From Escherichia coli (GTDB lineage: Bacteria > Pseudomonadota > Gammaproteobacteria > Enterobacterales > Enterobacteriaceae), in the NCBI RefSeq assembly GCF_045037415.1, contig NZ_CP173438.1: a stretch of 64,000 nt of DNA; one strand, 5' to 3'. Both the position numbers and the translations under genes were made by a program. Shown here in pieces: positions 2,841 through 56,230 of the stretch. The notes below the pieces were generated by a model. That model saw only the letters and a program-made list of their open reading frames with translations. It ran no database searches and had not been told where the DNA came from. Positions within the stretch are counted from its first letter, which is position 1, and each line of letters begins with the position of its first letter.

Positions 2841-2948
2841 TGGGGAATCTTTACCGGAGTGTGAGCCAAATCACTCGCGATAAGTTTGAGCAAACAATGC
2901 CACAGGCGTATTGTTGTCGGGCTTATAATTTCTCCGGTAAGGAATACC

Positions 2949-7998: not shown

Positions 7999-9411
7999 AT
8001 GTCACTCAGTCGGCGTCAGTTCATTCAGGCATCGGGGATTGCACTTTGTGCAGGCGCTGTTCCCCTGAAGGCCAGCGCAGCCGGGCAACAGCAACCGCTA
8101 CCCGTTCCGCCGCTGCTTGAATCTCGCCGTGGGCAACCGCTGTTTATGACTGTACAACGTGCGCACTGGTCATTTACGCCAGGGACACGCGCGTCGGTTT
8201 GGGGAATCAATGGTCGTTACCTGGGGCCGACTATCCGCGTCTGGAAGGGCGACGATGTTAAGCTTATTTACAGCAACCGCCTGACAGAAAATGTCTCAAT
8301 GACGGTGGCCGGGCTACAGGTACCTGGCCCGCTGATGGGCGGTCCGGCACGGATGATGTCGCCAAACGCTGACTGGGCACCCGTACTGCCCATTCGCCAG
8401 AACGCAGCTACTCTGTGGTATCACGCCAATACTCCCAACCGCACGGCTCAGCAGGTCTATAACGGCCTTGCCGGAATGTGGCTGGTGGAAGATGAAGTCA
8501 GTAAATCGCTGCCTATCCCCAACCATTATGGTGTGGATGATTTTCCTGTCATTATTCAGGATAAACGGCTGGATAACTTTGGTACGCCAGAATATAACGA
8601 ACCTGGAAGCGGCGGCTTTGTTGGCGATACGCTACTGGTTAACGGTGTACAAAGCCCGTACGTTGAAGTCTCGCGTGGCTGGGTGCGCTTGCGTCTGTTG
8701 AACGCGTCGAACTCTCGTCGCTATCAACTACAGATGAGCGATGGTCGCCCGTTACATGTGATTTCTGGCGATCAGGGATTCCTGCCCGCTCCTGTATCGG
8801 TGAAGCAACTTTCGCTGGCACCGGGCGAGCGTCGTGAGATTCTGGTGGATATGAGCAACGGTGATGAAGTGTCGATTACCTGTGGCGAAGCGGCGAGCAT
8901 TGTTGATCGTATTCGTGGCTTCTTTGAGCCATCCAGCATTCTGGTTTCTACGCTGGTGCTAACGCTGCGCCCAACCGGCCTTCTGCCGCTGGTCACAGAC
9001 AGTCTTCCGATGCGCTTGCTGCCAACTGAAATCATGGCCGGTTCGCCGATTCGAAGTCGTGATATCAGTCTGGGTGATGACCCGGGGATTAATGGGCAGT
9101 TGTGGGACGTCAACCGTATTGATGTTACTGCGCAGCAAGGAACGTGGGAACGCTGGACGGTGCGCGCGGACGAGCCGCAAGCGTTCCATATTGAAGGCGT
9201 GATGTTCCAGATCCGTAACGTGAATGGCGCGATGCCGTTCCCGGAAGACAGAGGCTGGAAAGATACCGTTTGGGTTGACGGACAAGTGGAGCTGCTTGTT
9301 TATTTCGGTCAGCCTTCCTGGGCGCACTTCCCGTTCTACTTCAACAGTCAGACGCTGGAAATGGCGGACCGTGGCTCGATTGGGCAACTGTTGGTCAATC
9401 CGGTACCGTAA
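7999..9411 (+). CDS. ftsP: Cell division protein FtsP (SufI), multicopper-oxidase fold, Tat-exported
   Basis: 470-aa ORF with twin-arginine signal MSLSRRQFIQASGIALCAGAVPLKASA. Confidence 0.95.
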   Translation: MSLSRRQFIQASGIALCAGAVPLKASAAGQQQPLPVPPLLESRRGQPLFMTVQRAHWSFTPGTRASVWGINGRYLGPTIRVWKGDDVKLIYSNRLTENVSMTVAGLQVPGPLMGGPARMMSPNADWAPVLPIRQNAATLWYHANTPNRTAQQVYNGLAGMWLVEDEVSKSLPIPNHYGVDDFPVIIQDKRLDNFGTPEYNEPGSGGFVGDTLLVNGVQSPYVEVSRGWVRLRLLNASNSRRYQLQMSDGRPLHVISGDQGFLPAPVSVKQLSLAPGERREILVDMSNGDEVSITCGEAASIVDRIRGFFEPSSILVSTLVLTLRPTGLLPLVTDSLPMRLLPTEIMAGSPIRSRDISLGDDPGINGQLWDVNRIDVTAQQGTWERWTVRADEPQAFHIEGVMFQIRNVNGAMPFPEDRGWKDTVWVDGQVELLVYFGQPSWAHFPFYFNSQTLEMADRGSIGQLLVNPVP

Positions 9412-9422
9412 TGGACCAATTC

Positions 9423-9448
9423 AATGCCCCACAGAGTGGTGGGGCATT
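9423..9448 (+). terminator. Stem-loop immediately downstream of ftsP (putative terminator)
   Basis: AATGCCCCAC-AGAGTG-GTGGGGCATT, perfect 10-bp inverted repeat 12 nt after the ftsP stop; no strong T-run follows. Confidence 0.5.
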
Positions 9449-9481
9449 GAAAATTACTCAGTATGCAGTCTTCATTGTGTA

Positions 9482-10786
9482 TCAGGTCGAAAATAATCCT
9501 GGCAGCATCAGACTAAGCTGCGGGAAATAACAAATAATTGCCATTACTACAAACAATGCCAGAAACATCGGCAGTAATGGTTTTATTGCCCTGTCGATAC
9601 TGACCTTACCAATGCTGCATCCCACAAACAGAATGGTGCCGACAGGTGGTGTGCAAAGGCCAATGGTTAAGTTGAAAACCATAATGATGCCGAAGTGAAT
9701 CGGATCAATCCCCAGATGCTGGGCGATCGGCAGGAAAATAGGTGTAAATATCAGGATCGCCGGCGTGATATCCATAAAGGTACCAACGATCAACAGAATG
9801 ATATTGATAATAAACAGAATGACCCATTTGTTATCCGAAACGCGGGTAATCAGTTCGTTGATCAACTCAGGAACATCAGCATTCGTCATGGCCCATGACA
9901 TCCCCATCGAGCAGCCTACCAGTAACAGAACAATTGAACTGGTTACTACCGAATCTAACAGAATATCATTGAGCTTCTTAAGAGTGATTTCCCGGTAAAT
10001 CATCGCCAGGGCTAAACTATAAATTACCGCAATTGCCGATGCTTCTGTAGGCGTAAATACCCCCGCGATAATACCGCCAATAATGATAAAAATAAGCATC
10101 AGGCTAGGAATTGATTCGCGGAATACCTGTAAAAACTGACGGTAATTAATGCGCTCGGCCACCGGATAATGGTGACGTCGGGCATAAAGTGCAGCTACAA
10201 ACATTAAGGCAACAGCGGTGAGGATGCCCGGCAGATATCCAGCTAAGAACAACGCAGCGACAGAAGTCCCGCCACTGGCAAGGGAATAAACAATCAACAC
10301 ATTGCTCGGTGGGATCATCAGGCCAATGGGGGCAGAGGCAATATTAACCGCTGCTGAAAACGCCGGATCATATCCCTCTTTTTCTTGCAGTGGTGACATA
10401 ATCCCACCTACCGCGGCGGCTGACGCAACGGCTGAACCTGAAATCGCACCAAACAGTGTATTCGCGAGGATATTACAATGAGCCAGTGAGCCAGGAAGAC
10501 GCCCAACTAATGCTTGCGCCAGGTTAACCAGTCGTCTGGCTATACCACCGGTATTCATAATGTTTCCGGCTAACACGAAGAAGGGAATGGCTAATAGCGT
10601 AAAGCCATCCAGCCCCACAGTCATCTTTTGCGAAATCACAGAAATGGCGGCATCGGGTGGTAAGGCAGTAATAATAGATAACAGCGAAGAAAGACCAATC
10701 GCAAAAGTAATTGGCACACCTATTGCCAGCATGACGGCAAAACTGCCAAATAAAATTAAGACGGGGTAGATATATTCAAAGTCCAT
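9482..10786 (-). CDS. TRAP transporter large permease (DctM family)
   Basis: Track ORF 9482..10828 starts at TTG; preferred start is ATG at 10786 (MDFEYIYPVLILFG...), preceded by GAGGG. Polytopic hydrophobic protein typical of DctM. Confidence 0.85.
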   Translation of the reverse strand: MDFEYIYPVLILFGSFAVMLAIGVPITFAIGLSSLLSIITALPPDAAISVISQKMTVGLDGFTLLAIPFFVLAGNIMNTGGIARRLVNLAQALVGRLPGSLAHCNILANTLFGAISGSAVASAAAVGGIMSPLQEKEGYDPAFSAAVNIASAPIGLMIPPSNVLIVYSLASGGTSVAALFLAGYLPGILTAVALMFVAALYARRHHYPVAERINYRQFLQVFRESIPSLMLIFIIIGGIIAGVFTPTEASAIAVIYSLALAMIYREITLKKLNDILLDSVVTSSIVLLLVGCSMGMSWAMTNADVPELINELITRVSDNKWVILFIINIILLIVGTFMDITPAILIFTPIFLPIAQHLGIDPIHFGIIMVFNLTIGLCTPPVGTILFVGCSIGKVSIDRAIKPLLPMFLALFVVMAIICYFPQLSLMLPGLFST

Positions 10787-10796
10787 ATTTCCCTCG

Positions 10797-11279
10797 TTAA
10801 TGAAAATTCCGTTTACGATAGTTGTCAATAATATTCATTACTGAATACCAGACCAGAATAAGCCCACTGACAGGCATAACCCAATATACTTTATCCATTG
10901 GCCATTTTAATACTGGAGAGATTTGTCCAACATGTTGTGCTTTTTCAACAACAATATTCCCGCCATAGATCATGAAAATAACCGCAAAGACCGTAATAAT
11001 AATTTGGATAAAACTGTCAAGCGTCAGAACAGATGCAGCCGGAAGTTTTTGAGCCAACAAATCAATGGCCAGATGTTTTTTTAACCCCGCAGTATATACA
11101 CCGCCAAGTAAAATCATCCACATAAATAAAATCTGGGTGAACTCATCAAGCACAGTGCTGGGAGCGTTAAAAATAAAACGTGCAATAACTTGCCAGGTTA
11201 CGCAGAACACCATAATGGCGAGAATAATGCAGCAACATCCGGCAAGGATCTTATTAAGAATATGAGTGAGTGTTCGCAT
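10797..11279 (-). CDS. TRAP transporter small permease (DctQ family)
   Basis: 160-aa, 4-TM-like protein immediately upstream of the large permease, the canonical Q-M order. Confidence 0.8.
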   Translation of the reverse strand: MRTLTHILNKILAGCCCIILAIMVFCVTWQVIARFIFNAPSTVLDEFTQILFMWMILLGGVYTAGLKKHLAIDLLAQKLPAASVLTLDSFIQIIITVFAVIFMIYGGNIVVEKAQHVGQISPVLKWPMDKVYWVMPVSGLILVWYSVMNIIDNYRKRNFH

Positions 11280-43197: not shown

Positions 43198-43245
43198 CCT
43201 TCCTGAAAATGCCCGGTCCTGGCGATCGGGCATTTCCATTTTTGA

Positions 43246-43938
43246 CTAGTGATAACCACGCGCGGTCATAAAATCCGTAATCGCTTTTTCTGCATCAATC
43301 AGCACCTTTTCCAGTGGCTGATTAGCATCGATATCAACCAGTTGTGCACCGCCAAAGGTTAACTGTGGCGTTATGGCAATCTTCCTCGCCAGCGATTCCC
43401 GTTTATGGTCGGGTTTACGCGCGCAGGCAACTTCAAGGTCAACATTGAGTTTGATGACCAGATCAGGTTTATGGCTCGCCATCCAGTGAAACGCTTTACG
43501 TTCCTGGCTTGCCAGCCATGAGACAAAACGACCACCTTCAATGTTAGGTGGGAACACTGTACCATCGTAAGCGCCAGGAATTTGGTCCTGAGGATAACGG
43601 TCGGTTAGAACAATTAACCCGCGACGACGACAGGCAAGCATATGACGAAAGCGCAGTAAGCGACGGGCGACAAACGCTGTAATTACCAGCGCCGGAACTG
43701 GTCCTGGCAATTTTTTTGCTGTTTTCACCTGATTTCGTTCAATTGTTTTATGTAAGGATTTTCCCATCAACGGTAATTTTGTCACTGAACGACCGACATT
43801 TCCGGCCTGTTTTCCTAAATGAACTCTTTCGGCAGCACCATATTTTTCGACAACGGTAATGAGATGTTCACACACCGTTGACTTGCCTGAACCATCGCTA
43901 CCAATAACGGCAATTAATGGAGGTGTTATTGACTGCAT
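43246..43938 (-). CDS. yghT: P-loop nucleotide/nucleoside-kinase-like protein YghT
   Basis: 230-aa ORF with Walker [10 protein letters not shown], a TDRYPQ motif and a lid-like ARKPDH block; paralogous to the two following genes. Confidence 0.85.
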
Positions 43939-44111: not shown

Positions 44112-44825
44112 GTGAATCAACGTAATATGTCAATAATTAATTCCACGCCAGTGCGTGTTATTGCCATTGTAGGATGTGATGGTTCAGGTAAATCGACCCT
44201 CACGGCAAGCCTGGTAAATGAACTGGCAGCAACAATGCCAACAGAACACATTTATCTCGGGCAATCGTCCGGGCGAATTGGCGAATGGATTTCACAGCTC
44301 CCTGTTATTGGCGCACCTTTTGGGCGTTATCTGCGAAGTAAAGCGGCACATGTGCACGAAAAGCCCTCCACACCGCCTGGCAATATGACTGCGCTGGTTA
44401 TCTATCTGCTTTCCTGCTGGCGGGCGTATAAGTTTCGCAAAATGTTGTGTAAAAGCCAGCAAGGCTATCTGCTCATCACCGACCGCTACCCGCAGGTTGA
44501 AGTGCCGGGTTTTCGCTTTGATGGCCCGCAATTGGCAAAAACCACGGGCGGTAACGGTTGGATAAAAATGTTAAGGCAGCGCGAGCTGAAGCTGTACCAA
44601 TGGATGGCATCTTATTTGCCCGTATTGTTGATTCGTCTTGGCATTGATGAACAAACCGCGTTTGCGCGTAAACCTGACCACCAACTGGCGGCGTTACAGG
44701 AAAAAATCGCCGTTACGCCGCAACTGACATTTAATGGCGCCAGGATCCTTGAACTGGATGGTCGGCAACCAGCCGATGAAATTCTGCAAGCGTCACTACG
44801 CGCAATTCAAGCTGCGCTTTCCTGA
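44112..44825 (+). CDS. yghS: P-loop kinase-like protein YghS
   Basis: 237-aa ORF starting at GTG (44112); Walker A GCDGSGKST, TDRYPQ, ARKPDH. Confidence 0.85.
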   Translation: MNQRNMSIINSTPVRVIAIVGCDGSGKSTLTASLVNELAATMPTEHIYLGQSSGRIGEWISQLPVIGAPFGRYLRSKAAHVHEKPSTPPGNMTALVIYLLSCWRAYKFRKMLCKSQQGYLLITDRYPQVEVPGFRFDGPQLAKTTGGNGWIKMLRQRELKLYQWMASYLPVLLIRLGIDEQTAFARKPDHQLAALQEKIAVTPQLTFNGARILELDGRQPADEILQASLRAIQAALS

Positions 44826-44856: not shown

Positions 44857-45630
44857 ATGGACGCACTACAAACACAAACTGTTAATAGTACAACCGCGCC
44901 GCAGCCCAACTACATTCCGGGGCTGATTGCGGTGGTCGGGTGTGATGGCACCGGTAAATCCACACTGACCACCGACCTCGTGAAATCGCTGCAACAACAC
45001 TGGCAAACCGAGCGGCGCTATCTGGGGCTGCTCTCGGGCGAAGACGGCGACAAAATCAAACGATTGCCGTTGGTTGGCGTCTGGCTCGAAAGGCGACTGG
45101 CGGCCAAATCATCGAAAACCCAAAGCATGAAAACCCAAAGCATGAAAACCAAATCTCCAGCGCTATGGGCGGCGGTGATTATGTACTGCTTCTCGCTGCG
45201 AAGAATGGCGAATCTACGCAAGGTTCAGCGACTGGCGCAAAGTGGCGTTCTGGTGGTCAGCGATCGCTTCCCGCAGGCTGAAATTTCGGGCTTTTATTAT
45301 GACGGACCGGGGATCGGCGTCGAACGTGCGACCGGGAAAATCAGCATGTTTCTGGCGCAGCGCGAACGGCGTTTATACCAAAAAATGGCGCAATACCGTC
45401 CTGAATTAATCATTCGTTTGGGGATTGATATTGATACTGCCATCTCCCGCAAGCCTGACCATGACTATGCCGAGCTGCAGGACAAAATCGGCGTCATGTC
45501 GACGATTGGCTATAACGGCACAAAAATTCTTGAGATTGATTCCAGAGCGCCCTACAGCGAAGTGCTGGAACAGGCACAGAAGGCGGTTTCTCTGGTTGCC
45601 ATCGTTTCTGACCGCCGAAGTTTAACTTAA
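44857..45630 (+). CDS. yghR: P-loop kinase-like protein YghR (carries an internal 5-aa tandem repeat)
   Basis: 257-aa ORF MDALQTQTVNSTTAPQPNYIPGLIAVVGCDGTGKST...; SDRFPQ and SRKPDH motifs. Confidence 0.85.
   Translation: MDALQTQTVNSTTAPQPNYIPGLIAVVGCDGTGKSTLTTDLVKSLQQHWQTERRYLGLLSGEDGDKIKRLPLVGVWLERRLAAKSSKTQSMKTQSMKTKSPALWAAVIMYCFSLRRMANLRKVQRLAQSGVLVVSDRFPQAEISGFYYDGPGIGVERATGKISMFLAQRERRLYQKMAQYRPELIIRLGIDIDTAISRKPDHDYAELQDKIGVMSTIGYNGTKILEIDSRAPYSEVLEQAQKAVSLVAIVSDRRSLT
45115..45150 (+). repeat. In-frame 15-bp tandem duplication inside yghR
   Basis: AAAACCCAAAGCATG occurs twice in tandem, followed by a partial third copy (AAAACC), encoding ...KTQSMKTQSMKTKS... Confidence 0.9.
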
Positions 45631-45675: not shown

Positions 45676-47025
45676 TTGGCGGGTTTTAACATCAAACATT
45701 GGTTTGCAGATGGCGCGTTTCGCACCATTATTCGCAATAGCGCCTGGTTAGGCTCCAGTAATGTCGTGAGCGCTTTACTGGGTCTGTTGGCGCTCTCGTG
45801 TGCCGGTAAAGGGATGACGCCCGCCATGTTTGGCGTACTGGTGATTGTACAATCGTACGCCAAGTCGATCAGCGATTTTATTAAGTTTCAGATATGGCAG
45901 CTGGTGGTTCAGTACGGAACACCAGCATTAACCAACAATAATCCGCAGCAATTCCGCAATGTCGTCTCATTTTCCTTCTCGCTGGATATCGTCAGCGGCG
46001 CGGTGGCGATTGTCGGCGGCATTGCCTTACTCCCTTTTCTTTCCCATTCATTAGGTCTGGATGACCAAAGCTTTTGGCTGGCAGCGCTGTATTGCACGCT
46101 CATTCCTTCAATGGCTTCCTCCACGCCGACCGGCATTCTGCGTGCGGTAGATCGCTTCGATCTAATTGCTGTACAGCAAGCGACGAAACCTTTTCTGCGC
46201 GCAGCGGGGAGCGTCGTAGCCTGGTATTTTGACTTTGGTTTTGCGGGTTTTGTTATTGCCTGGTACGTGTCGAATCTGGTTGGCGGCACCATGTACTGGT
46301 GGTTTGCCGCGCGCGAATTACGCCGCAGAAATATCCATAACGCCTTCAAATTGAATCTGTTTGAGTCTGCCCGACACATTAAAGGCGCGTGGAGTTTTGT
46401 CTGGTCAACCAACATTGCCCACTCCATCTGGTCGGCGCGTAACTCGTGCAGCACAGTGCTGGTGGGGATCGTGTTAGGACCCGCTGCCGCCGGGTTATTT
46501 AAAATCGCCATGACATTCTTCGACGCCGCCGGAACGCCAGCGGGTTTACTGGGCAAAAGTTTTTACCCAGAGGTGATGCGTTTAGATCCGCGCACCACCA
46601 GACCGTGGTTGTTAGGCGTGAAGTCAGGTTTACTGGCGGGCGGAATTGGTATTCTGGTGGCGCTCGCGGTGTTGATCGTCGGCAAGCCGCTTATTTCGCT
46701 GGTGTTTGGCGTTAAGTATCTCGAAGCGTATGACCTGATTCAGGTGATGCTGGGCGCAATTGTGATTTCGATGCTGGGCTTCCCACAGGAGTCATTGCTA
46801 TTGATGGCGGGAAAACAGCGCGCTTTTCTCGTGGCGCAAACCATCGCCTCAATCGGCTACATCGTATTGCTGTTCATGTTCTGTCATCTGTTTGGCGTGC
46901 TGGGAGCAGCGTTTGCTTATTTCGGTGGGCAATGTCTGGATGTGGTGCTCTCGTTAATTCCGACCTTAAAGGCATTTTTTCAGCGCCATTCCTTGCTTTA
47001 TAACGCAGCCGGAGAGAAATCCTGA
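45676..47025 (+). CDS. yghQ: MOP-superfamily (Wzx-like) polytopic membrane protein YghQ; start uncertain
   Basis: 449-aa track ORF beginning at TTG 45676 with AAGG 9 nt upstream; highly hydrophobic multi-TM protein. Stop overlaps the start of the next gene (TGATG). Confidence 0.75.
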   Translation: MAGFNIKHWFADGAFRTIIRNSAWLGSSNVVSALLGLLALSCAGKGMTPAMFGVLVIVQSYAKSISDFIKFQIWQLVVQYGTPALTNNNPQQFRNVVSFSFSLDIVSGAVAIVGGIALLPFLSHSLGLDDQSFWLAALYCTLIPSMASSTPTGILRAVDRFDLIAVQQATKPFLRAAGSVVAWYFDFGFAGFVIAWYVSNLVGGTMYWWFAARELRRRNIHNAFKLNLFESARHIKGAWSFVWSTNIAHSIWSARNSCSTVLVGIVLGPAAAGLFKIAMTFFDAAGTPAGLLGKSFYPEVMRLDPRTTRPWLLGVKSGLLAGGIGILVALAVLIVGKPLISLVFGVKYLEAYDLIQVMLGAIVISMLGFPQESLLLMAGKQRAFLVAQTIASIGYIVLLFMFCHLFGVLGAAFAYFGGQCLDVVLSLIPTLKAFFQRHSLLYNAAGEKS

Positions 47026-47849
47026 TGATGAGAAAATATTTCCCGCTTGAGGCGAGCGAGCGTTTATTTGTTGCAGTTGAAGAAGATGATGTCGTTGATG
47101 CACAGGTCAGTTTGCCGCCGACTATCGCACTAAGTTGTACCACCGAAATCATCCATGATAATTACGCGTTATGCCTGCAATTCTGGCTCAATGGCGTCAA
47201 TCGCCAGGAGTTACTGCGTTTAATATGCAAACAGGCCAAAGGCGATGAGCTGACTGCTGATGAGCGCAAACAATTTAAATACATGCGAGCGCGCTACAAG
47301 CACCTGCGTTTTGCGCAACGGCTGTATTTAAAGAAGCATCAGGCCGGATTTTTATTCGGCAAAACGACCGTTTTTTTGGGGCGTTTTCAGGACGGTTTTC
47401 GTAACGGTAAGAAAAATATTGTGTCGTATTACGGCAACTTGTTACGGGTTTATTTAAGCTCTCCGGTCTGGTCGTTGGTGAACTATTCATTACGCCATAG
47501 CCAGTTAGAAAGCGTAAGCGGTTTTATTGCCTATCGGCAAAAGCAAATGCATACCCTGAAAGAGATAATTGCCAAACCGCGACTCACCGGCAGGGAATTT
47601 CATGATGTGCGAAAAATCATCAGCCAGCAGGTTTCTTATTACGACACCTTAAGATCGCTTGATCCTGAAAATAAAGAGGCGTTACAGATTTCCCGCTTCC
47701 TCGCCGCCATTAATGGCCTGATGGGGGATAAACACGACGACATGGTGGCGGATGATATGGAAAACCGCCAGTCGTATGATGCACCGGTGGCGCTGGATAG
47801 CGATATTCGCCAGCGCTTAGAGCTGCTGATTTCGCGTTTTCCGCTATAA
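47025..47849 (+). CDS. Hypothetical soluble protein, no recognisable family
   Basis: 274-aa ORF MMRKYFPLEASERLFVAVEEDD...; coding assignment rests on length, coupling to yghQ (1-nt overlap) and operon context. Confidence 0.6.
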   Translation: MMRKYFPLEASERLFVAVEEDDVVDAQVSLPPTIALSCTTEIIHDNYALCLQFWLNGVNRQELLRLICKQAKGDELTADERKQFKYMRARYKHLRFAQRLYLKKHQAGFLFGKTTVFLGRFQDGFRNGKKNIVSYYGNLLRVYLSSPVWSLVNYSLRHSQLESVSGFIAYRQKQMHTLKEIIAKPRLTGREFHDVRKIISQQVSYYDTLRSLDPENKEALQISRFLAAINGLMGDKHDDMVADDMENRQSYDAPVALDSDIRQRLELLISRFPL

Positions 47850-47857
47850 CCGGAGCA

Positions 47858-48421
47858 ATGATGTCATCTCGTTTGATTATTGCGCTGATTATCATGCTCT
47901 TAGCCCAGGGTGTGCAGGCACACAATTTTGTCACTGGCAAAACGGTTACCCCCGTTTATATCCAGGAAGGCGGCGAGCTGCTTCTGAATAGCGACGACGA
48001 AATTCACTACCAAAAGTGGAACAGCACACAGCTGGCGGGAAAAGTCCGCATTATCCAGTATATCGCCGGGCGTAAGTCGGCGAAGAAAAAGAACTCACTG
48101 TTAATTAAAGCGGTTGAAGCGGCAAACTTTCCGCAGGATCGTTTTCAGCCCACCACCATTGTGAACACCGATGATGCCATCTTTGGTACTGGCTATTTTG
48201 TCGTTGGCAAAATCGAAAAAAATAAACGCCGCTATCCGTGGGCGCAATTCGTTATTGACGGCAATGGACTGGGACGCGTTGCCTGGCGGTTGCCGGAGCA
48301 GAGTTCAACCATTCTGGTGCTGAATAAAGACGGGCAAATTCAGTGGGCAAAGGACGGCAGCCTGACGCCGGAAGAGGTAGATCATGTCATTGCGCTGGCG
48401 CAGAAACTGATCAATGAATAA
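47858..48421 (+). CDS. YtfJ-family periplasmic protein
   Basis: 187-aa ORF with signal peptide MMSSRLIIALIIMLLAQGVQA and GGAG Shine-Dalgarno; body resembles my recollection of YtfJ (QKWNS..LAGKVR..QYIAGR, TTIVNTDDAI, LNKDG..QWAKDG.LTPEEV). Confidence 0.65.
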   Translation: MMSSRLIIALIIMLLAQGVQAHNFVTGKTVTPVYIQEGGELLLNSDDEIHYQKWNSTQLAGKVRIIQYIAGRKSAKKKNSLLIKAVEAANFPQDRFQPTTIVNTDDAIFGTGYFVVGKIEKNKRRYPWAQFVIDGNGLGRVAWRLPEQSSTILVLNKDGQIQWAKDGSLTPEEVDHVIALAQKLINE

Positions 48422-48451
48422 AAAATTCAAAGGATTGAGGGTGTTAGTGAG

Positions 48452-49522
48452 ATGAAGCTGGTTGAACACTACATCATGCGTGGTACGCGCCGTCTGGTGC
48501 TGATTATCGTCGGTTTTCTGATCTTTATTTTCGCCAGCTACTCCGCACAGCGTTATCTGACCGAAGCGGCAAATGGGACCTTAGCTCTTGATGTTGTGCT
48601 GGATATCGTTTTCTACAAAGTGCTGATTGCACTGGAGATGTTGTTACCTGTTGGTCTGTATGTGTCAGTTGGCGTGACGCTAGGGCAGATGTATACCGAC
48701 TCGGAAATTACCGCTATCTCTGCGGCGGGGGGCAATCCGGGACGCTTGTACAAAGCCGTTCTTTATCTGGCGATACCGCTAAGTATTTTTGTCACCCTTC
48801 TGTCGATGTATGGTCGGCCGTGGGCTTATGCGCAGATTTATCAACTGGAGCAACAGTCGCAGTCGGAGCTGGATGTTCGCCAGTTGCGGGCAAAGAAATT
48901 TAACACTAACGATAACGGACGAATGATCCTTTCGCAGACGGTTGATCAGGATAATAATCGCCTGACTGACGCGCTGATTTATACTTCTACTGCCAATCGA
49001 ACCCGCATTTTCCGCGCCCGTTCGGTTGATGTGGTTGACCCATCACCTGAGAAACCGACCGTTATGTTGCATAACGGGACCGCCTATCTTCTCGATCATC
49101 AGGGGCGTGACGACAACGAACAGATCTACCGTAATCTGCAATTACATCTGAATCCGCTGGATCAAAGCCCTAACGTCAAACGCAAAGCAAAATCGGTCAC
49201 GGAGCTGGCGCGCTCAGCCTTTCCTGCCGATCATGCCGAACTGCAATGGCGACAAAGCCGTGGCCTGACAGCATTGTTGATGGCGCTGCTGGCCATTTCA
49301 TTAAGTCGGGTAAAACCGCGGCAAGGGCGATTTTCAACGTTATTGCCACTGACATTGCTGTTTGTTGCCATTTTTTATGGCGGCGACGTCTGCCGTACGC
49401 TGGTGGCTAACGGTGCGATTCCCCTCATTCCTGGTTTGTGGTTAGTACCCGGACTCATGCTAATGGGCCTGCTGATGCTGGTCGCACGCGACTTCTCTTT
49501 GCTGCAGAAATTTTCCCGATGA
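48452..49522 (+). CDS. LptF/LptG-family (YjgP/YjgQ) permease paralog
   Basis: 356-aa ORF: three N-terminal TM segments, a central soluble domain and C-terminal TM segments, the architecture of LPS-export permeases. Confidence 0.75.
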   Translation: MKLVEHYIMRGTRRLVLIIVGFLIFIFASYSAQRYLTEAANGTLALDVVLDIVFYKVLIALEMLLPVGLYVSVGVTLGQMYTDSEITAISAAGGNPGRLYKAVLYLAIPLSIFVTLLSMYGRPWAYAQIYQLEQQSQSELDVRQLRAKKFNTNDNGRMILSQTVDQDNNRLTDALIYTSTANRTRIFRARSVDVVDPSPEKPTVMLHNGTAYLLDHQGRDDNEQIYRNLQLHLNPLDQSPNVKRKAKSVTELARSAFPADHAELQWRQSRGLTALLMALLAISLSRVKPRQGRFSTLLPLTLLFVAIFYGGDVCRTLVANGAIPLIPGLWLVPGLMLMGLLMLVARDFSLLQKFSR

Positions 49523-50598
49523 ATGTTTTCAGTCGCTATTTAATCCGTCATCTCTTTCTCGGTTTTGCCGCCGCCGCAGGGCTATTGCTGCCGCTTTTTA
49601 CCACCTTCAACCTGATTAACGAACTGGATGATGTCAGCCCGGGCGGTTATCGCTGGACTCAGGCGGTGCTGGTGGTGCTGATGACCTTACCGCGTACACT
49701 GGTCGAACTTTCGCCGTTTATCGCATTATTGGGAGGGATTGTTGGCCTGGGGCAGTTATCGAAAAACAGTGAGCTTACCGCCATTCGCAGCACTGGGTTT
49801 TCTATCTTCCGTATTGCACTGGTGGCGCTGGTTGCCGGGATATTGTGGACTGTTTCGTTAGGCGCGATAGATGAGTGGGTGGCGTCGCCATTGCAGCAAC
49901 AGGCGCTGCAAATCAAATCGACTGCCACCGCGTTGGGGGAGGACGATGACATTACCGGCAATATGCTTTGGGCCAGGCGCGGTAATGAATTTGTGACGGT
50001 GAAATCGCTGAACGAGCAGGGCCAGCCTGTGGGCGTGGAGATATTTCATTATCGCGACGATCTCTCGCTCGAATCCTACATTTTTGCACGCAGTGCCTCC
50101 ATTGAAGACGACAAAACGTGGATCCTGCATGGTGTGAATCATAAAAAATGGTTGAATGGCAAAGAAACGCTGGAAACATCAGATAATCTTGCCTGGCAAT
50201 CGGCCTTCACCAGTATGGATCTTGAAGAGTTATCGATGCCGGGGAATACTTTTTCTGTCCGTCAGCTTAATCATTACATCCATTATTTGCAGGAAACCGG
50301 ACAACCCAGCAGCGAATACCGCCTTGCACTGTGGGAAAAACTGGGGCAACCGATCCTGACCCTGGCGATGATTTTGCTGGCTGTGCCGTTCACCTTTAGC
50401 GCCCCGCGCTCGCCAGGGATGGGTAGCCGTCTCGCTGTAGGCGTCATCGTTGGCTTACTCACCTGGATCAGCTATCAAATCATGGTCAATCTGGGATTGT
50501 TATTTGCGTTGAGCGCACCTGTTACCGCGCTCGGTTTACCGGTAGCGTTTGTGTTGGTGGCGTTGAGCCTGGTGTATTGGTATGACAGACAACATTAA
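49519..50598 (+). CDS. LptF/LptG-family (YjgP/YjgQ) permease paralog, LptG-like
   Basis: Track ORF 49438..50598; preferred start ATG at 49519 (MNVFSRYLIRHLFLGFAAAAGLLLPLFTTFNLINELDDV...) overlapping the upstream stop (ATGA). The N-terminus and LSKNSELTAIRSTGFS block parallel E. coli LptG. Confidence 0.78.
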   Translation: MNVFSRYLIRHLFLGFAAAAGLLLPLFTTFNLINELDDVSPGGYRWTQAVLVVLMTLPRTLVELSPFIALLGGIVGLGQLSKNSELTAIRSTGFSIFRIALVALVAGILWTVSLGAIDEWVASPLQQQALQIKSTATALGEDDDITGNMLWARRGNEFVTVKSLNEQGQPVGVEIFHYRDDLSLESYIFARSASIEDDKTWILHGVNHKKWLNGKETLETSDNLAWQSAFTSMDLEELSMPGNTFSVRQLNHYIHYLQETGQPSSEYRLALWEKLGQPILTLAMILLAVPFTFSAPRSPGMGSRLAVGVIVGLLTWISYQIMVNLGLLFALSAPVTALGLPVAFVLVALSLVYWYDRQH

Positions 50599-50632
50599 AC
50601 CCGCCGTGGCGCAACACCACAGCGGGCTCACA
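50599..50632. terminator. Stem-loop between the convergent LptG-like gene and the AOS-like gene
   Basis: CCCGCCGTGG-CGCAACA-CCACAGCGGG, imperfect 10-bp inverted repeat filling the 34-bp gap between two convergent stop codons. Confidence 0.45.
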
Positions 50633-51805
50633 TTACTGCTTCAGAGTAGCAAATGCCTGAATGATGGCATCGATTTGCTCACGACTGTGGGCAGCGTTTA
50701 CGCTACAGCGCAGCAGAGTGATGCCTGCAGGCGCGGCAGGTGGCAGGATAAGATTCACATAAACGCCCAGCGAAATAAGCTCGCGCCAGATGCGTAAACC
50801 TTCCTCTTTCGAACCGATTATTACTGGCACTACCGGGCTAATATGTGAACTTAACTCATAACCCAGTTTTTGCAGACCGTCATACAGATGGTTGGCGTTA
50901 TCCATCAGTTTTTGCCGCAGCTCTGGTTGTGTGGCAATGGTTCTTAACGACGAGCGCACGGTCGCAATGCAGGACGGAGAAGGAGAGGCGGTAAAAATAT
51001 ACGGGCGGCTGCCGTAGCGCAGCACTTCCATCGCTTCCGAACCGACAGCAAAACCGCCAATCGAGGCCAGACTTTTACTGAAAGTACCAACGATAATATC
51101 CACATCATCTTCAACGCCAACGGCTTCAGCCAGTCCGCGCCCCGTTGCGCCTAACACGCCAAACGAATGCGCTTCATCGACAATCAAATAACCACCGAGA
51201 CGACGTTTGATATCAACAATTTCCGCTAACGGCGCAACGTCACCGAGCATGCTGTAGATGCCCTCAACGATGATAATCGCCTCTTTCGCCCGTTCACCGA
51301 GGCGAACCATGCGCCGTTCCAGATCTTTAGCATCGTTATGGCGGAAACGAATAATTTCTGCGCCACCGAGAGAACAGGCGTCATAAATACTGGCGTGGCT
51401 GTCGGCATCCAGTAACACCACGGCGTTATGGTCGGCAAGTGCGCTGATGACGCCTAAATTAGCGGTATAACCGGTTGAAAAAACGATAGCGGTAGGGCGA
51501 TTGAAAAACTCGGCAATCTCTTTCTCTAACGCCAGGTGCGGCGCATAACTGCCGTTTGCCATACGAGAACCGGTGGTGCCGGTGCCTTGGGCCGCTAACG
51601 CTGCCTGACCTTCGGCGATGGCATCATGATTAAAGGTTAAACCGAGATAATTATTGGTCCCGGCCAGAATCACTTTTTTATTGCCGATCCGACCTTCGGT
51701 GGCGGAATACACTTCATCAATACAGGTGCCAAACGGTGTTAACCCGTTGTCACTAAATTGCAGTCGCTCGCCAGCAAGGCGCGCATATTTATCGTATAGC
51801 CCCAT
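50633..51805 (-). CDS. PLP-dependent alpha-oxoamine synthase (serine palmitoyltransferase / BioF / Kbl family)
   Basis: 390-aa ORF with VDEAHSFG and the PLP-lysine block GTFSKS; start ATG overlaps the ACP stop (TAATG). Confidence 0.85.
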   Translation of the reverse strand: MGLYDKYARLAGERLQFSDNGLTPFGTCIDEVYSATEGRIGNKKVILAGTNNYLGLTFNHDAIAEGQAALAAQGTGTTGSRMANGSYAPHLALEKEIAEFFNRPTAIVFSTGYTANLGVISALADHNAVVLLDADSHASIYDACSLGGAEIIRFRHNDAKDLERRMVRLGERAKEAIIIVEGIYSMLGDVAPLAEIVDIKRRLGGYLIVDEAHSFGVLGATGRGLAEAVGVEDDVDIIVGTFSKSLASIGGFAVGSEAMEVLRYGSRPYIFTASPSPSCIATVRSSLRTIATQPELRQKLMDNANHLYDGLQKLGYELSSHISPVVPVIIGSKEEGLRIWRELISLGVYVNLILPPAAPAGITLLRCSVNAAHSREQIDAIIQAFATLKQ

Positions 51806-52053
51806 TATTTATTCTCCAGCCATGGAAGTAGAGTTTCCATTAATTGCGCAGGGGTTTTGACATCCAGCAGAATATTAATAGGAATGGAAATATCGAATCT
51901 GTCTTCCAGCATCATTAAGAGATCCATCACTTTGATCGACTCCAGGCCAAGATCGTTGACGAGATCGCTGTCGGGCTTAATTTCCACACCGTTTTCGACC
52001 AAATCCTGTAAACAGGAAAGGATGTAATCCATTACTATTTCACGATTTACCAT
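51805..52053 (-). CDS. Acyl carrier protein
   Basis: 82-aa acidic protein with a phosphopantetheine-attachment-like DLGLESI motif. Confidence 0.75.
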   Translation of the reverse strand: MVNREIVMDYILSCLQDLVENGVEIKPDSDLVNDLGLESIKVMDLLMMLEDRFDISIPINILLDVKTPAQLMETLLPWLENK

Positions 52054-52084
52054 AGAAACGTTAACACACCTTTAAACAAGACAA

Positions 52085-52999
52085 TCAAAATAGCCCGTTG
52101 CGTAATGCGTGTTCCAGGCTAATCCCGGGAAACCAATTAATATCTTCAGAAATACGGTTATTACTTGCCGACCAGTCGGCATGGGTTAATTCACGGATTT
52201 TCGAACGAGTCAGCATCGGTTCTTTACCCGCCAGACGGCTCAACGCGGTACTGATATCCGCAAGGCAGGTGAGTAGCGGCAGAGGAATACCGACCATCCG
52301 CACGGAACCACAGCGGACATCGGCAACAAGCTGTTGGACACGTTGCCAGTCATAGCCTCCGGCGACGCCATCGCATAATTCATAGGTTTGCGTCTGTACA
52401 GTTTCGGCGCTTAACCACTGACCCACTGCTTGCGCAAAATCGGTGACGTGCAGGAAAGAGAGCTGTGTCTCTGGCGTGCCAAGTCGTGGCAGCAGACCGC
52501 GCAGCATCCAGTCAAACAGCGGTTTTAACTCTTTATCGCCGGGACCATACACGGCTGTCGGGCGAAAAACGCCCAACGTAATTGCGTCAGCCATTGCAGT
52601 CAGCTGTTGTTCGGCGACGTGTTTGGAATTTGCGTACCAGGAGAGTTCGGGATGGCGCGCCGCCAGCGAAGAGATAAACAGAAATCGTTGGCAAAAGCCG
52701 CTCTCTTTTGCCGCTTGCATCAGGCGCAGGCTGCCGTCAACGTTGCAGCGGGTAAAAATCTCTTCTTTGTGCCCGCGCACTTGCCCGGCGCAATGGACCA
52801 CCGCGCTGGCTCCGGTAACCAGTTCGCTAAGCGAATGTGTATCTTCCAGCGAACCGCGCACCCAAGTGAGATTATCATTGACGTGAGCGCGGGCAGTACG
52901 CGTCAATGCGCGAACGTGAAAGCCGCGGGCGAGCAGGTTATCAATAATATATTTACCGATAAACCCGGTAGCGCCCGTCACCGCGACAGTTTGATTCAT
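52085..52999 (-). CDS. NAD(P)-dependent epimerase/dehydratase-family (extended SDR) reductase
   Basis: 304-aa ORF with Rossmann VTGATGFIG and catalytic YxxxK (YANSK); start ATG overlaps the upstream stop (ATGA). Confidence 0.82.
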   Translation of the reverse strand: MNQTVAVTGATGFIGKYIIDNLLARGFHVRALTRTARAHVNDNLTWVRGSLEDTHSLSELVTGASAVVHCAGQVRGHKEEIFTRCNVDGSLRLMQAAKESGFCQRFLFISSLAARHPELSWYANSKHVAEQQLTAMADAITLGVFRPTAVYGPGDKELKPLFDWMLRGLLPRLGTPETQLSFLHVTDFAQAVGQWLSAETVQTQTYELCDGVAGGYDWQRVQQLVADVRCGSVRMVGIPLPLLTCLADISTALSRLAGKEPMLTRSKIRELTHADWSASNNRISEDINWFPGISLEHALRNGLF

Positions 53000-54744
53000 G
53001 CCAGGGACTCCTGCACATGAAGACTGGCAGCATAAGCCTTCTGATAACGTTTTTTCGCTTCCGCACGGGCAGGCTTGCCGGAGGATGTTCGGGGAATACT
53101 GTGGGGCGGCAACAGATCGATATCCGCGGTAACGCCAAATTCGCTTTGGATCCGTGCTGCCAGCGCGTGGATAAGCTGCCCGCGACGTTCTTCATCGCTG
53201 ATCCGACACTGGATCTGCAAAATGATTTTTTCCTGGGCGGTAACAAAAGCAATCGCATCGCCAGAATGAATTTCCGGTTCCTGTTCCGCAATATATTCAA
53301 TATCCTGCGGCCAGATATTACGGCCACGAATAATAATCAGATCTTTAATGCGTCCGGTGACATACAGATAACCGTCCAGCAGATAACCGAGGTCGCCGGT
53401 GTCTAACCAGCCCGTCGCGGCAATCTCGTCTTGTGAAATCTGGTCGCCAAAGTAACCGCTCATCAGGCTAGGGCCGGAGATGCAAATATGGCCTACCACA
53501 CGTTCCGCGACAGGTATACCTGCTTCATTGCGGATTTCAATGCCATGTTCCGGCAACGCTTTACCGCAGTTGACGAAAGTCGATACGGCGCGTGTTTCAG
53601 CACCCGGCGCGACGGCTTTACCCTGGTATTCGAGGATGTCGCGATCCACTTCGTTAACCACAACCCCGGAAGCTTCATCAGAGAAGCTGACAGCCAGCGC
53701 ATTTTCTGCCAGTCCGTAGCACGGCATGAAAGTTTTATCGTCAAAGTTGACCTGACGGAAACATTCAGCGAATTGATGGAGTTGTTCTGCGGAGATGGGT
53801 TCTGCACCAATACCAGCGACGCGCCAGCAGGAAAGATCCAGTTCAGCGAGATCTTTTTCATTCACGCGGCGCTGGCACAATTCATAGCCAAACGGCGGCG
53901 CAACGGAAACGGTGCCGCGATTTTTACTGATCAATTTAAGCCATTGCAGAGGACGCATGGCAAAATCCTGAGTGCGCAAATAATCTACTGAAAGCTGCGT
54001 GGCGACGGGGGTCAGGAGAAAGCCGACCAGTCCCATATCATGGTAGAAAGGCAGCCAGGAGACGCAGCGGTCGCCAGGGCGTAATTTAATCCCATCGTGG
54101 CTTATAGCACGTAGATTAGCCATCACTTCGCGGTGAGTAATGATAACGCCACGGGGAAAACGGGTGCTGCCGGAGGTGTACTGGAGGTAGGCGATATCGT
54201 TTGGAACTGGACGTTGAAGCGCAACATCGGCTTCCGGTAATGCCTTAAACCAGGCGTGGCTTAAAACATGTAATTCGGGATTGTTATGCGTCGCGGCATT
54301 GACCAGTGGCAACCACTCATCACCAGTGATAATGGCTGCGGGCTGGCAACTTGCCAGTAACCCCTGCAGTTTGGCGCTCCAGGAATCCCGCTGACCGACG
54401 CCCATTGGAATCGCCAACGGGACGGCGACTAAGCCGGCATACTGGCAGGCAAAAAAAGCCTCTACAAACCCGCTACTCGTTTCGGCAATCAGTGCCACGC
54501 GATCGCCTTTTTTCAGGTTCAGCGATAACAACCGCTTCGCACCAGCTTCGGCACGCGCTTTTAACGTCTGATATTCCAGTTGATCTTCAAGTTGGCAACG
54601 TCTGTCATAAAAATTCATTCCAGCGCTACTCAGAGCGGCATAGTCCAAAGCATCAACCAGCGTTGGAAAATCGGCATAGCGCATAGGTAGGGAATGCGTA
54701 AAGATTTTATTAGACATATACACCACGAAAAAATTGGATATCAA
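52996..54744 (-). CDS. Fatty acyl-AMP ligase / acyl-ACP synthetase (AMP-dependent synthetase family); start uncertain
   Basis: Track ORF starts at TTG 54744; an in-frame ATG at 54717 (MSNKIF...) is the alternative. AMP-binding core YTSGSTRFPRGV and a C-terminal ...SGKPAR... block. Confidence 0.82.
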   Translation of the reverse strand: MISNFFVVYMSNKIFTHSLPMRYADFPTLVDALDYAALSSAGMNFYDRRCQLEDQLEYQTLKARAEAGAKRLLSLNLKKGDRVALIAETSSGFVEAFFACQYAGLVAVPLAIPMGVGQRDSWSAKLQGLLASCQPAAIITGDEWLPLVNAATHNNPELHVLSHAWFKALPEADVALQRPVPNDIAYLQYTSGSTRFPRGVIITHREVMANLRAISHDGIKLRPGDRCVSWLPFYHDMGLVGFLLTPVATQLSVDYLRTQDFAMRPLQWLKLISKNRGTVSVAPPFGYELCQRRVNEKDLAELDLSCWRVAGIGAEPISAEQLHQFAECFRQVNFDDKTFMPCYGLAENALAVSFSDEASGVVVNEVDRDILEYQGKAVAPGAETRAVSTFVNCGKALPEHGIEIRNEAGIPVAERVVGHICISGPSLMSGYFGDQISQDEIAATGWLDTGDLGYLLDGYLYVTGRIKDLIIIRGRNIWPQDIEYIAEQEPEIHSGDAIAFVTAQEKIILQIQCRISDEERRGQLIHALAARIQSEFGVTADIDLLPPHSIPRTSSGKPARAEAKKRYQKAYAASLHVQESLA

Positions 54745-55087
54745 AAATAAAATGACAATAATGCGGTGGATTATATAGGCATAAAAGATAAATGAGATAG
54801 TATTTTCATCGGTGCGATATTGAACATTGATTTAAATAATAGGTTTTGTTTTGTTGTTTTTATTGTGAATGATATTTGATTTATGAATGTATTAAGAATG
54901 AACCTTGTCTGACCGCATTAAATCGCTAAAAGGCATTGTGGCGCTTCTTCGTTGGCTGTGATCTTATCGTAATCATTAATAAATAATATTTATTCTTATT
55001 TTGTATTCATGGTGTTGATTATTAAGATGCCGTTCGTTGCTGTTGCAACCTGTTTTTCATCGTTAATTATTTGTTATCCACAGAGAT
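54745..55087. promoter_or_regulatory. AT-rich divergent intergenic region between the lipid-synthesis operon and yghO
   Basis: ~340 bp of visibly AT-rich sequence with A/T tracts (e.g. TTTTGTTTTGTTGTTTTTATTGTGAATGATATTTGATTTATGAATG) between two divergent starts. Confidence 0.4.
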
Positions 55088-56230
55088 ATGGAATGCGATC
55101 TGCTGATGATTAAAATTGAAAAAGTAATTAATAAAAATGACCTTAAGGCATTTATCGCTTTTCCGTCATCACTTTATCCCGACGATCCAAACTGGATACC
55201 CCCTTTATTCATTGAACGCAACGAGCATTTGTCTGCGAAAAATCCGGGGACGGACCATATCATCTGGCAGGCGTGGGTGGCAAAAAAAGCGGGGCAGATA
55301 GTTGGGCGTATTACCGCGCAAATAGATACCTTGCACCGCGAGCGTTACGGCAAAGATACCGGTCATTTCGGCATGATTGACGCCATTGATGATCCGCAGG
55401 TTTTTGCCGCGTTGTTTGGCGCAGCGGAAGCGTGGTTGAAGTCACAAGGTGCAAGTAAGATCAGCGGTCCTTTCAGCCTGAATATCAATCAGGAAAGCGG
55501 ATTACTGATTGAAGGTTTCGATACACCACCCTGTGCGATGATGCCGCACGGTAAACCGTGGTATGCCGCGCATATTGAACAATTGGGTTATCACAAAGGC
55601 ATTGATTTACTGGCGTGGTGGATGCAGCGAACCGATCTCACTTTCTCTCCGGCGCTAAAAAAACTGATGGATCAGGTGCGTAAGAAGGTGACCATTCGCT
55701 GCATCAATCGCCAGCGGTTTGCCGAAGAGATGCAGATCCTGCGTGAGATTTTCAATTCTGGCTGGCAGCACAACTGGGGATTTGTGCCGTTTACCGAACA
55801 TGAATTCGCGACCATGGGCGACCAACTTAAATATCTGGTGCCGGACGATATGATCTACATCGCTGAGATTGATTCTGCACCCTGCGCGTTTATTGTCGGC
55901 TTGCCAAACATCAACGAGGCGATTGCCGATCTGAACGGATCGCTCTTTCCCTTCGGCTGGGCAAAATTGCTGTGGCGTTTAAAAGTCAGCGGTGTGCGAA
56001 CTGCGCGAGTACCGCTGATGGGCGTGCGGGACGAGTATCAGTTCAGCCGCATCGGCCCGGTGATTGCGTTGTTATTGATTGAAGCCTTACGCGATCCGTT
56101 TGCCCGCCGGAAGATCGATGCGCTGGAGATGTCATGGATCCTCGAAACCAATACAGGCATGAATAACATGCTGGAACGCATTGGGGCGGAGCCGTACAAG
56201 CGTTACCGATTGTATGAAAAGCAGATTTGA
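55088..56230 (+). CDS. yghO: GNAT-like acyltransferase-family protein YghO, apparently intact
   Basis: 380-aa continuous ORF MECDLLMIKIEKVINKNDLKAF... (alternative start ATG at 55106). I recall K-12 yghO being annotated as a pseudogene. Confidence 0.7.
   Translation: MECDLLMIKIEKVINKNDLKAFIAFPSSLYPDDPNWIPPLFIERNEHLSAKNPGTDHIIWQAWVAKKAGQIVGRITAQIDTLHRERYGKDTGHFGMIDAIDDPQVFAALFGAAEAWLKSQGASKISGPFSLNINQESGLLIEGFDTPPCAMMPHGKPWYAAHIEQLGYHKGIDLLAWWMQRTDLTFSPALKKLMDQVRKKVTIRCINRQRFAEEMQILREIFNSGWQHNWGFVPFTEHEFATMGDQLKYLVPDDMIYIAEIDSAPCAFIVGLPNINEAIADLNGSLFPFGWAKLLWRLKVSGVRTARVPLMGVRDEYQFSRIGPVIALLLIEALRDPFARRKIDALEMSWILETNTGMNNMLERIGAEPYKRYRLYEKQI

Follow-up and report, generated by a model that had tools for sequence, protein, structure and literature searches.

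A probable ceramide synthesis and export locus of Escherichia coli and its conserved kinase, flippase and CHAD-like gene module

What do the genes between yghQ and yghO of Escherichia coli make, and where does the unit to which they belong end? The interval considered here lies at positions 45,676-56,230 of the window, i.e. the whole stretch of 64,000 nucleotides that was analyzed (contig NZ_CP173438.1 of RefSeq assembly GCF_045037415.1). A sequence-only reading had proposed that this interval couples the synthesis of a ceramide-type lipid to a flippase and an Lpt-like export system, and all of its open reading frames (ORFs) were found at the positions given there. The proposal was supported gene by gene, and the interval is very probably an E. 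coli ceramide (sphingolipid) synthesis and export locus. Both the ceramide genes and the Lpt-type export are already in print, and the finding as first written is therefore of little weight. The part that has not been reported is a module of kinase, CHAD-like and flippase genes. Moreover, the conserved unit consists of 13 genes, not 10. These are: yghT, yghS, yghR, yghQ, the gene of a 274-aa protein, a ytfJ-like gene, lptF2, lptG2, spt, acpR, cerR, aasR and yghO.

Assignment of the synthesis enzymes was based on NCBIfam equivalog cut-offs (500 bits for Spt, NF047599; 426 for BioF; 460 for Kbl; 600 for the fatty acyl-AMP ligase (FAAL) model NF006624). The alpha-oxoamine synthase scored 600 bits against the Spt model and remained below the cut-offs of both sister families (334 bits for BioF and 298 bits for Kbl), as expected for the serine palmitoyltransferase type that had been proposed for it. 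Its gene is already named spt by the Prokaryotic Genome Annotation Pipeline (PGAP). AasR, which had been described as a fatty acyl-AMP ligase, reached 868 bits with NF006624, and AcpR matched acyl carrier protein (ACP) models. The SDR-type reductase gave epimerase-family matches only, and no Pfam or NCBIfam model matched YghO. These two proteins, previously likened to CerR and bCerS, match the genes found at the corresponding positions of a Caulobacteraceae locus (L035): the reductase is 34% identical to the gene product in the CerR position, and YghO is 42% identical to the one in the CC_1154 position, where its family profile scored 508 bits.

The spt loci used for comparison were sampled from one genome per species and scored with all proteins of the E. 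coli locus. The five-gene core (spt, acpR, cerR, aasR and yghO) has the same arrangement in at least 30 of these loci, including one of the Caulobacteraceae. In every locus cerR is placed between aasR and acpR, and in all loci compared yghO is divergent from aasR. The acpR gene lies immediately upstream of spt, and neither gene order nor orientation differs among the loci of enterobacteria, Pseudomonas, Stutzerimonas, Luteibacter and Caulobacteraceae.

What is known of the products of this core comes from E. coli BL21(DE3), in which the same locus (ECD_02850-ECD_02854, i.e. yghO/aca, aasR, epi, acpR and spt) was studied by Padilla-Gomez et al. 2022 (PMC9386255); this work bears out the tentative statement of the sequence-only reading that homologous gene sets of E. 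coli had been noted in the sphingolipid literature. Between the window and E. coli B, protein identity is 95-100% (Spt 99.5%, AcpR 100%, AasR 98.2% and YghO 100%). In that study, AcpR was found to bear 4'-phosphopantetheine, AasR acylated AcpR and not CoA, and Spt, which prefers acyl-AcpR, converted L-serine and acyl-AcpR to 3-oxo-sphinganine in vitro and in vivo. The yghO gene (aca) was identified as an orthologue of CC_1154, and the epimerase-family gene (epi, ECD_02852) as an orthologue of the reductase gene. On thin-layer chromatography, BL21 carrying the empty vector gave no 3-oxo-sphinganine, which appeared only on overexpression of AcpR, AasR and Spt. Sphinganine- and ceramide-like spots were also seen after overexpression of the three proteins and were ascribed to formation "possibly by intrinsic enzymes". 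These spots suggest that the chromosomal cerR and yghO genes were expressed in the overexpression strain. The study covers only the five synthesis genes (and not yghQ, lptF2/lptG2, yghT/S/R or the genes of the 274-aa and YtfJ-like proteins), and it reports no native end product.

As for transport, YghQ matches Pfam PF01943 (E-value of 5.8e-9), and the enterobacterial YghQ profile scored 564 bits on the ORF located directly upstream of aasR in L035, which is the position of CC_1166. YghQ is thus proposed to be the counterpart of CC_1166, with a predicted flippase activity. CC_1166 belongs to the same InterPro family, shows cofitness with sphingolipid genes in Caulobacter and was put forward as a "potential flippase" (PMC11324152 and its S1 Text).

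LptF2 (316 bits with TIGR04407, cut-off 230) and LptG2 (306 bits with TIGR04408, cut-off 240) are full-length ORFs that pass their family cut-offs, in line with the earlier description of a non-degenerate LptF/G-like permease pair. Both align end to end with solved LptF and LptG (residues 4-353 and 3-351, respectively), the scores with the E. coli/Shigella proteins being only 92 and 146 bits, and both genes are retained in enterobacterial, Pseudomonas and Stutzerimonas spt loci. By these alignments they are old, diverged paralogues and not decayed copies. Like the components of canonical LptB2FGC they pass the equivalog cut-offs over their whole length, and unlike them they are encoded in a sphingolipid locus with neither lptB nor lptC beside it. 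From this position, and from the lack of an adjacent lptB, we infer by analogy that the pair is of the sphingolipid type and uses LptB. The symbols lptF and lptG given to these paralogues by PGAP are misleading, as they suggest the essential lipopolysaccharide genes.

In Caulobacter, LptC2/F2/G2 and CC_1166 are the proposed transport route of sphingolipids towards the outer membrane (Olea-Ozuna et al. 2024, PMC11324152). It was further reported that lptF2, lptG2 and lptC2 can be deleted there only when sphingolipid synthesis or the anionic head group is switched off, and that LptF2 and LptG2 form a complex which binds the housekeeping LptB (Uchendu, Isom and Klein, bioRxiv 10.64898/2026.04.12.717747); the legend of Figure 2B of the same preprint names sphingolipid operons of E. 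coli UTI89. The sequence-only reading had called both the export module and its product uncharacterised. The first half of this statement falls, as such export was already proposed and tested in Caulobacter, and the second half stands, as no report of a native E. coli product was found.

Where, then, does the locus end? The yghRST kinase genes had been taken for its border, which was wrong: they are retained with spt across genera and belong to the locus. The full 13-gene set was found in 24 enterobacterial loci representing ten genera (Escherichia, Citrobacter, Pseudocitrobacter, Hafnia, Sodalis, Serratia, Mangrovibacter, Pluralibacter, Rosenbergiella and Pantoea). These loci are built of a fixed core, in which yghO is divergent from aasR-cerR-acpR-spt, and three accessory blocks: (i) yghT with yghS-yghR, (ii) yghQ with the genes of the 274-aa and YtfJ-like proteins, and (iii) lptF2-lptG2. 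The accessory blocks change sides of the core (in Sodalis, Serratia, Mangrovibacter, Rosenbergiella and Pantoea) yet stay in the locus. Since they are rearranged around the core but never lost, yghRST are part of the unit, and their retention despite shuffling points to function and not to inherited gene order. All gene families of the locus are represented in other genera by intact ORFs of constant length, with 50-88% protein identity, so that none of the genes appears degenerate; the same conservation, within E. coli and beyond it, indicates purifying selection. Outside Escherichia, glcC was never found beside the locus, and pitB only sometimes. In addition to the full locus (L012), Serratia sp. 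M24T3 carries a second spt-acpR pair (L022; 79% and 69% identity) with no other locus genes near it.

The kinase genes travel with spt in at least nine other enterobacterial genera as well as in Pseudomonas and Luteibacter. The Pseudomonas locus has the order spt, MsbA-like ABC flippase, two YghRST-type kinases and a CptA-type phosphoethanolamine transferase (849 bits, cut-off 404), and CpgB- and CpgC-like genes lie beside lptG2 (positions 11267-16480 of L030; also in L027 and L031, L024 being truncated). No YghQ, CHAD-like or YtfJ-like genes were found in the Pseudomonas spt loci, and the MsbA-like ABC transporter stands where enterobacteria have the MOP flippase. In Luteibacter rhizovicinus, a single co-directional cluster is composed of yghT, yghS-yghR, a hydroxylase gene, aasR-cerR-acpR-spt, yghQ and two CHAD-like genes. 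In this locus (L066), the hydroxylase gene between the kinases and aasR (positions 2553-3311; Asp_Arg_Hydrox, PF05118) possibly encodes a lipid hydroxylase, the CHAD-like genes following yghQ (9063-10840) are tandem paralogues, and an RND efflux system is located between the cluster and yghO.

Parts of the accessory set were also found elsewhere: (i) three kinases, YghQ and a CHAD-like gene in Sphingobium cloacae, (ii) the same gene order, but with two kinases, in Sphingomonas gellani, and (iii) a fused double kinase adjoining a CHAD-like gene in Oecophyllibacter, where two YghQ-like genes are located no more than 6 kb away. A metagenomic member of the kinase family adjoins two PAP2 lipid-phosphate phosphatases.

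Which substrate could the three kinases act on? YghT, YghS and YghR have the thymidylate-kinase fold and retain the catalytic motifs (Walker A, DR[YF]PQ and RKPDH in YghT). The PGAP name of YghS and YghT, thymidine monophosphate (dTMP) kinase, was rejected, as the kinases scored 25-31 bits (YghT 26) against the equivalog TIGR00041, which has a cut-off of 83. The dTMP-binding region of Tmk is diverged in all three, and the acceptor region of the structural model has a predicted local distance difference test (pLDDT) score of 51-60. They were likewise not accepted as PPK2 polyphosphate kinases (neither a match to Pfam PF03976 nor PPK2 as the closest structural neighbour was found), nor as homologues of CpgB, which is of the LCB5/diacylglycerol-kinase type. 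The best matches in Sphingobium and Luteibacter differ from paralogue to paralogue, and since each of the three kinases of Sphingobium cloacae has another of the E. coli paralogues as its best match, the triplication is ancient. In contrast to Tmk and other nucleoside monophosphate kinases, YghT, YghS and YghR are therefore three anciently separated paralogues encoded inside lipid loci. The kinase family includes tandem self-fusions of about 435 aa (P0151 and P0152), and the CHAD-like family includes tandem double proteins of 564-659 aa (P0005 and P0134); such fusions hint that the proteins of each family may work as a dimer or pseudo-dimer. YghR of this strain contains a 5-residue tandem repeat (KTQSM KTQSM, approximately residues 88-98), which is not present in E. 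coli B or in other genera and corresponds to 5 gap positions in the alignment with E. coli B and to an insertion in that of the family.

The 274-aa protein, previously listed as a featureless unknown, is according to its predicted structure a divergent CHAD-fold protein composed of two four-helix bundles. This fold was found by fold comparison only (the known CHAD domains compared were Ricinus RcCHAD 6qv5, Chlorobium CtCHAD 3e0s, Streptomyces PptA 6rn5 and E. coli YgiF). Against the Pfam CHAD model PF05235, the E. coli protein gave no match even at E<=10, and 22 of the 82 family members matched at E<=0.1 and three at E<=0.001. By sequence, neither the CHAD-like profile nor the YtfJ-like protein had a meaningful match among solved structures. 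The protein has an isoelectric point of 9.2, and H193, R196 and K197, as well as R88, K92 and R95 in the symmetric half, are conserved in the family. CHAD domains bind polyphosphate via conserved His/Arg residues around a basic pore, and the conserved basic and His residues of the family resemble the His/Arg contacts of CtCHAD (PMC6537752). Unlike known CHAD genes, the gene lies beside that of a flippase in a lipid locus and not beside that of a CYTH/TTM enzyme or polyphosphate kinase. The long members of the family are tandem self-duplications with no other recognisable domain, the neighbourhoods of three distant metagenomic members (on contigs of 1-2 kb) were uninformative, and the literature search found no paper on both CHAD domains and sphingolipids. 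The YtfJ-like protein scored 216 bits against TIGR01626 (cut-off 151). Its gene always adjoins the CHAD-like gene in enterobacterial loci and was not found in the Pseudomonas, Luteibacter or Sphingomonadales loci examined.

A suitable reference for the whole unit is the Caulobacter crescentus locus CC_1152-CC_1168, which comprises the ceramide core, CpgABC, LptC2/F2/G2 and CC_1166 (PMC11324152, PMC11087976 and bioRxiv 10.64898/2026.04.12.717747). Both loci have the five-gene core, a MOP flippase and an LptF2/LptG2 pair without a dedicated LptB. The E. coli locus lacks counterparts of CpgB (LCB5-type ceramide kinase), CpgC (Tam41-like), CpgA (CDP-alcohol transferase), the CC_1152/1153 nucleotidyltransferases and LptC2, whereas thymidylate-kinase-fold kinases, CHAD-fold and YtfJ-family proteins were not found in the Caulobacteraceae locus L035. 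CpgB and CpgC homologues occur in Pseudomonas and Caulobacteraceae loci and in none of the enterobacterial ones (in E. coli, the search covered the locus alone). Because the CpgABC genes are replaced by kinase, CHAD-like and YtfJ-like genes, the head group in E. coli is probably not ceramide phosphoglycerate.

These comparisons can be combined into one explanation, which we regard as likely when taken as a whole. As demonstrated for the E. coli B proteins, AcpR receives a fatty acid from AasR, and the acyl-AcpR formed is condensed with serine by Spt, giving 3-oxo-sphinganine. By orthology to Caulobacter, YghO would N-acylate the base and the SDR-type reductase would reduce the 3-keto group, yielding dihydroceramide. 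The yghT/S/R, CHAD-fold and YtfJ-like genes would stand in for those of the Caulobacter CpgABC head-group enzymes. On the cytoplasmic face, YghT, YghS and YghR would phosphorylate the ceramide head group with one or more phosphates; the acceptor might be a phosphomonoester, as dTMP is for thymidylate kinase, in which case a diphosphate would be formed. The phosphate-rich head group would next be bound by the CHAD-like protein, and YghQ, in the role of CC_1166, would then flip the lipid across the inner membrane. The YtfJ-like protein would act in the periplasm. LptF2 and LptG2, driven by the housekeeping LptB, would finally extract the lipid and pass it over the Lpt bridge to the outer membrane.

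The phosphate head group, suggested by conserved neighbourhood and predicted folds, is a tentative part of this scheme and could well be wrong. More doubtful still is the wider proposal of a head-group and handling module for sphingolipids that is shared by Enterobacteria, Luteibacter, Sphingomonadales and some Acetobacteraceae, the E. coli product being a multiply phosphorylated (pyro- or oligophosphate) ceramide delivered by LptF2G2. Such a module, which has not been recognised before, would be composed of two or three lipid kinases of the thymidylate-kinase fold that diverged long ago, a MOP flippase and a CHAD-fold protein for the phosphate-rich group. The phosphoethanolamine transferase of Pseudomonas and the PAP2 phosphatases found elsewhere fit lipid-phosphate chemistry, but do not prove it.

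Several points weigh against the scheme. The literature search yielded no account of sphingolipids in unmodified E. coli (a transcriptome paper on E. coli 83972 that mentions sphingolipids was discarded, as it contains only KEGG labels for lacZ and melA). Given this, the negative empty-vector control in BL21 and the viability of K-12 in the absence of the locus, the pathway may be silent, or active under certain conditions only. Phosphorylation of ceramide by the kinases is suggested by neighbourhood and fold; their substrate role is a prediction, and the acceptor-binding region of the model is of low confidence. As the E. coli CHAD-like protein has no Pfam CHAD match, its binding of polyphosphate is extrapolated. 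The kinase/flippase/CHAD module lies away from spt in Sphingobium, Sphingomonas gellani and Oecophyllibacter, in two of them near glycosyltransferases, so that it could serve another envelope glycolipid. MOP flippases usually carry polyprenyl-diphosphate-linked glycans.

A cryptic or conditionally silent locus is a serious possibility, although we rate it somewhat below even: the genes would be intact but ordinarily yield little sphingolipid, and would either have a niche role (in the host gut, under stress or phosphate limitation) or be in the course of being lost. The appearance of the product in BL21 on overexpression only (PMC9386255), the loss of the locus from K-12 to IS5 with no obvious defect, a coverage below 80% in about one quarter of complete E. 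coli genomes and the lack of any native sphingolipid report among the papers found all agree with it. Yet all 13 ORFs have kept their integrity and length in 75% of E. coli genomes and, at the identities given above, in at least nine other enterobacterial genera, and the sphinganine- and ceramide-like spots of the 2022 work speak for expression of the chromosomal cerR and yghO. This reading concerns regulation and is compatible with the function proposed here.

Some of the points raised above would also be explained if yghT/S/R, yghQ and the CHAD-like gene formed a separate envelope system, devoted to a polyprenyl-linked or glycolipid intermediate or linked to polyphosphate, and did not act on ceramide, which we consider unlikely. 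Within 10 kb of the modules of Oecophyllibacter, Sphingobium cloacae and Sphingomonas gellani, spt, yghO and cerR are all missing, and GT4 glycosyltransferases adjoin those of the first two; MOP flippases classically carry undecaprenyl-diphosphate glycans, and CHAD proteins are tied to polyphosphate metabolism. However, kinase, core, YghQ and CHAD-like genes form one co-directional cluster in Luteibacter, in Pseudomonas, spt and the gene of a lipid-type ABC flippase come immediately before the kinases, and the enterobacterial blocks, although shuffled, are always in the locus. The genomes bearing the module are those of known or predicted sphingolipid producers, the sphingolipid genes are scattered in Sphingomonadales (PMC11324152), and CC_1166 is cofit with sphingolipid genes in Caulobacter. 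The synthase could, alternatively, use another amino acid and make a lipid that is not a sphingolipid (capnine/sulfonolipid-like, or derived from alanine or glycine), and this we hold to be very improbable. The amino-acid specificity of Spt is relaxed (PMC9386255 and PMC10196870), and no report of a natural product of E. coli was found; nevertheless, the 99.5% identical Spt of E. coli B made 3-oxo-sphinganine from L-serine in vitro and in vivo, the protein passes the Spt equivalog cut-off, and its gene lies within a conserved ceramide gene set.

The layout of the ceramide synthesis and export locus in the window is given in Table 1. The locus has glcC as its downstream neighbour and yghT/S/R upstream of yghQ, and the RefSeq annotation of a 100%-identical E. 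coli genome gives the same gene set. The convergent operons are separated by 35 nt, which are occupied by the 16-pair hairpin. Overlaps of 1-4 nt (yghQ and the 274-aa protein gene, lptF2 and lptG2 (4 nt), spt and acpR, and the reductase and ligase genes) are as in translationally coupled operons. For aasR, an upstream TTG at 54744 yields the longer ORF of the sequence-only reading; the start adopted here is at 54684. With gaps of only 31 and 45 nt, and a promoter-like site 5' of yghS, the plus-strand operon probably begins with yghS. A scan for consensus promoters gave 15 sites versus 16.5 in shuffled sequence, i.e. no excess, and promoters are therefore claimed by position only. A 12-pair hairpin followed by a T-rich run (43207-43235), located directly after pitB and before the end of yghT, is a probable terminator marking the left edge of the conserved unit.

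Table 1. Genes and other features of the locus, with positions in the window.
Feature	Position	Strand	Description	Family model
yghT	43246..43938	-	thymidylate-kinase-fold P-loop kinase, paralogue 1; outside the interval first described	
yghS	44112..44825	+	thymidylate-kinase-fold P-loop kinase, paralogue 2; probable first gene of plus-strand operon	
yghR	44857..45630	+	thymidylate-kinase-fold P-loop kinase, paralogue 3	
yghQ	45676..47025	+	predicted MOP/Wzx-type (Polysacc_synt) flippase; putative counterpart of Caulobacter CC_1166	
274-aa protein gene	47025..47849	+	divergent CHAD fold (polyphosphate-binding type) by predicted structure; predicted cytoplasmic	
YtfJ-family periplasmic protein gene	47858..48421	+	signal peptide by eye; no cysteines	TIGR01626
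lptF2	48452..49522	+	diverged LptF paralogue, putatively sphingolipid-type	TIGR04407
lptG2	49519..50598	+	diverged LptG paralogue	TIGR04408
hairpin, 16-pair, GC-rich	50596..50630		probable terminator common to both convergent operons	
spt	50633..51805	-	serine palmitoyltransferase	NF047599
acpR	51805..52053	-	specialised acyl carrier protein	ACP models
cerR/epi	52085..52999	-	extended-SDR reductase; ceramide or 3-oxo-sphinganine reductase homologue	
aasR	52996..54684	-	acyl-AcpR synthetase, FAAL family	NF006624
intergenic region, AT-rich (~40% GC), divergent	54685..55087		presumed promoters of yghO and the synthesis operon; deleted in K-12	
yghO	55088..56230	+	bCerS-type N-acyltransferase; bacterial ceramide synthase homologue	
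IS5-replaced interval in K-12-type genomes	46745..55127		from alignment to a K-12-type genome	

How widely is the locus kept within E. coli? Alignment to a K-12-type genome revealed that 8,383 bp are exchanged there for a 1,194-bp IS5, with the loss of the 3' quarter of yghQ, eight complete genes, the divergent promoter region and codons 1-13 of yghO. This confirms that K-12 has an IS5-disrupted remnant with a shortened yghQ and a truncated yghO, as stated in the sequence-only reading. Among 5426 complete E. coli genomes, 4063 carry at least 80% of the locus, and 672 have no match to it. Partial states comprise yghO alone (14% coverage), the first 149 bp alone, and the left 56% of the locus. 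As several deletion states exist besides the K-12-type remnant, the locus has been lost repeatedly within E. coli.

An intact lipid locus of 13 genes, for which no natural product has been reported, is present in three quarters of complete E. coli genomes, and for five of its conserved genes (those of the three kinases and of the CHAD-like and YtfJ-like proteins) no published role was found. K-12 cannot reveal these genes, because IS5 has deleted most of the locus. If the proposed module function is true, the locus would supply a candidate for the flippase of sphingolipids, still counted among the missing components of the field in 2024, and CHAD domains would gain a role beyond polyphosphate granules. 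The product would then be an additional anionic lipid of the outer membrane, i.e. a new class of E. coli envelope lipid present in most natural isolates and missed because of K-12, and, like CPG2 in Caulobacter, it would have consequences for the binding of polymyxin, the stability of the outer membrane and recognition by the host.

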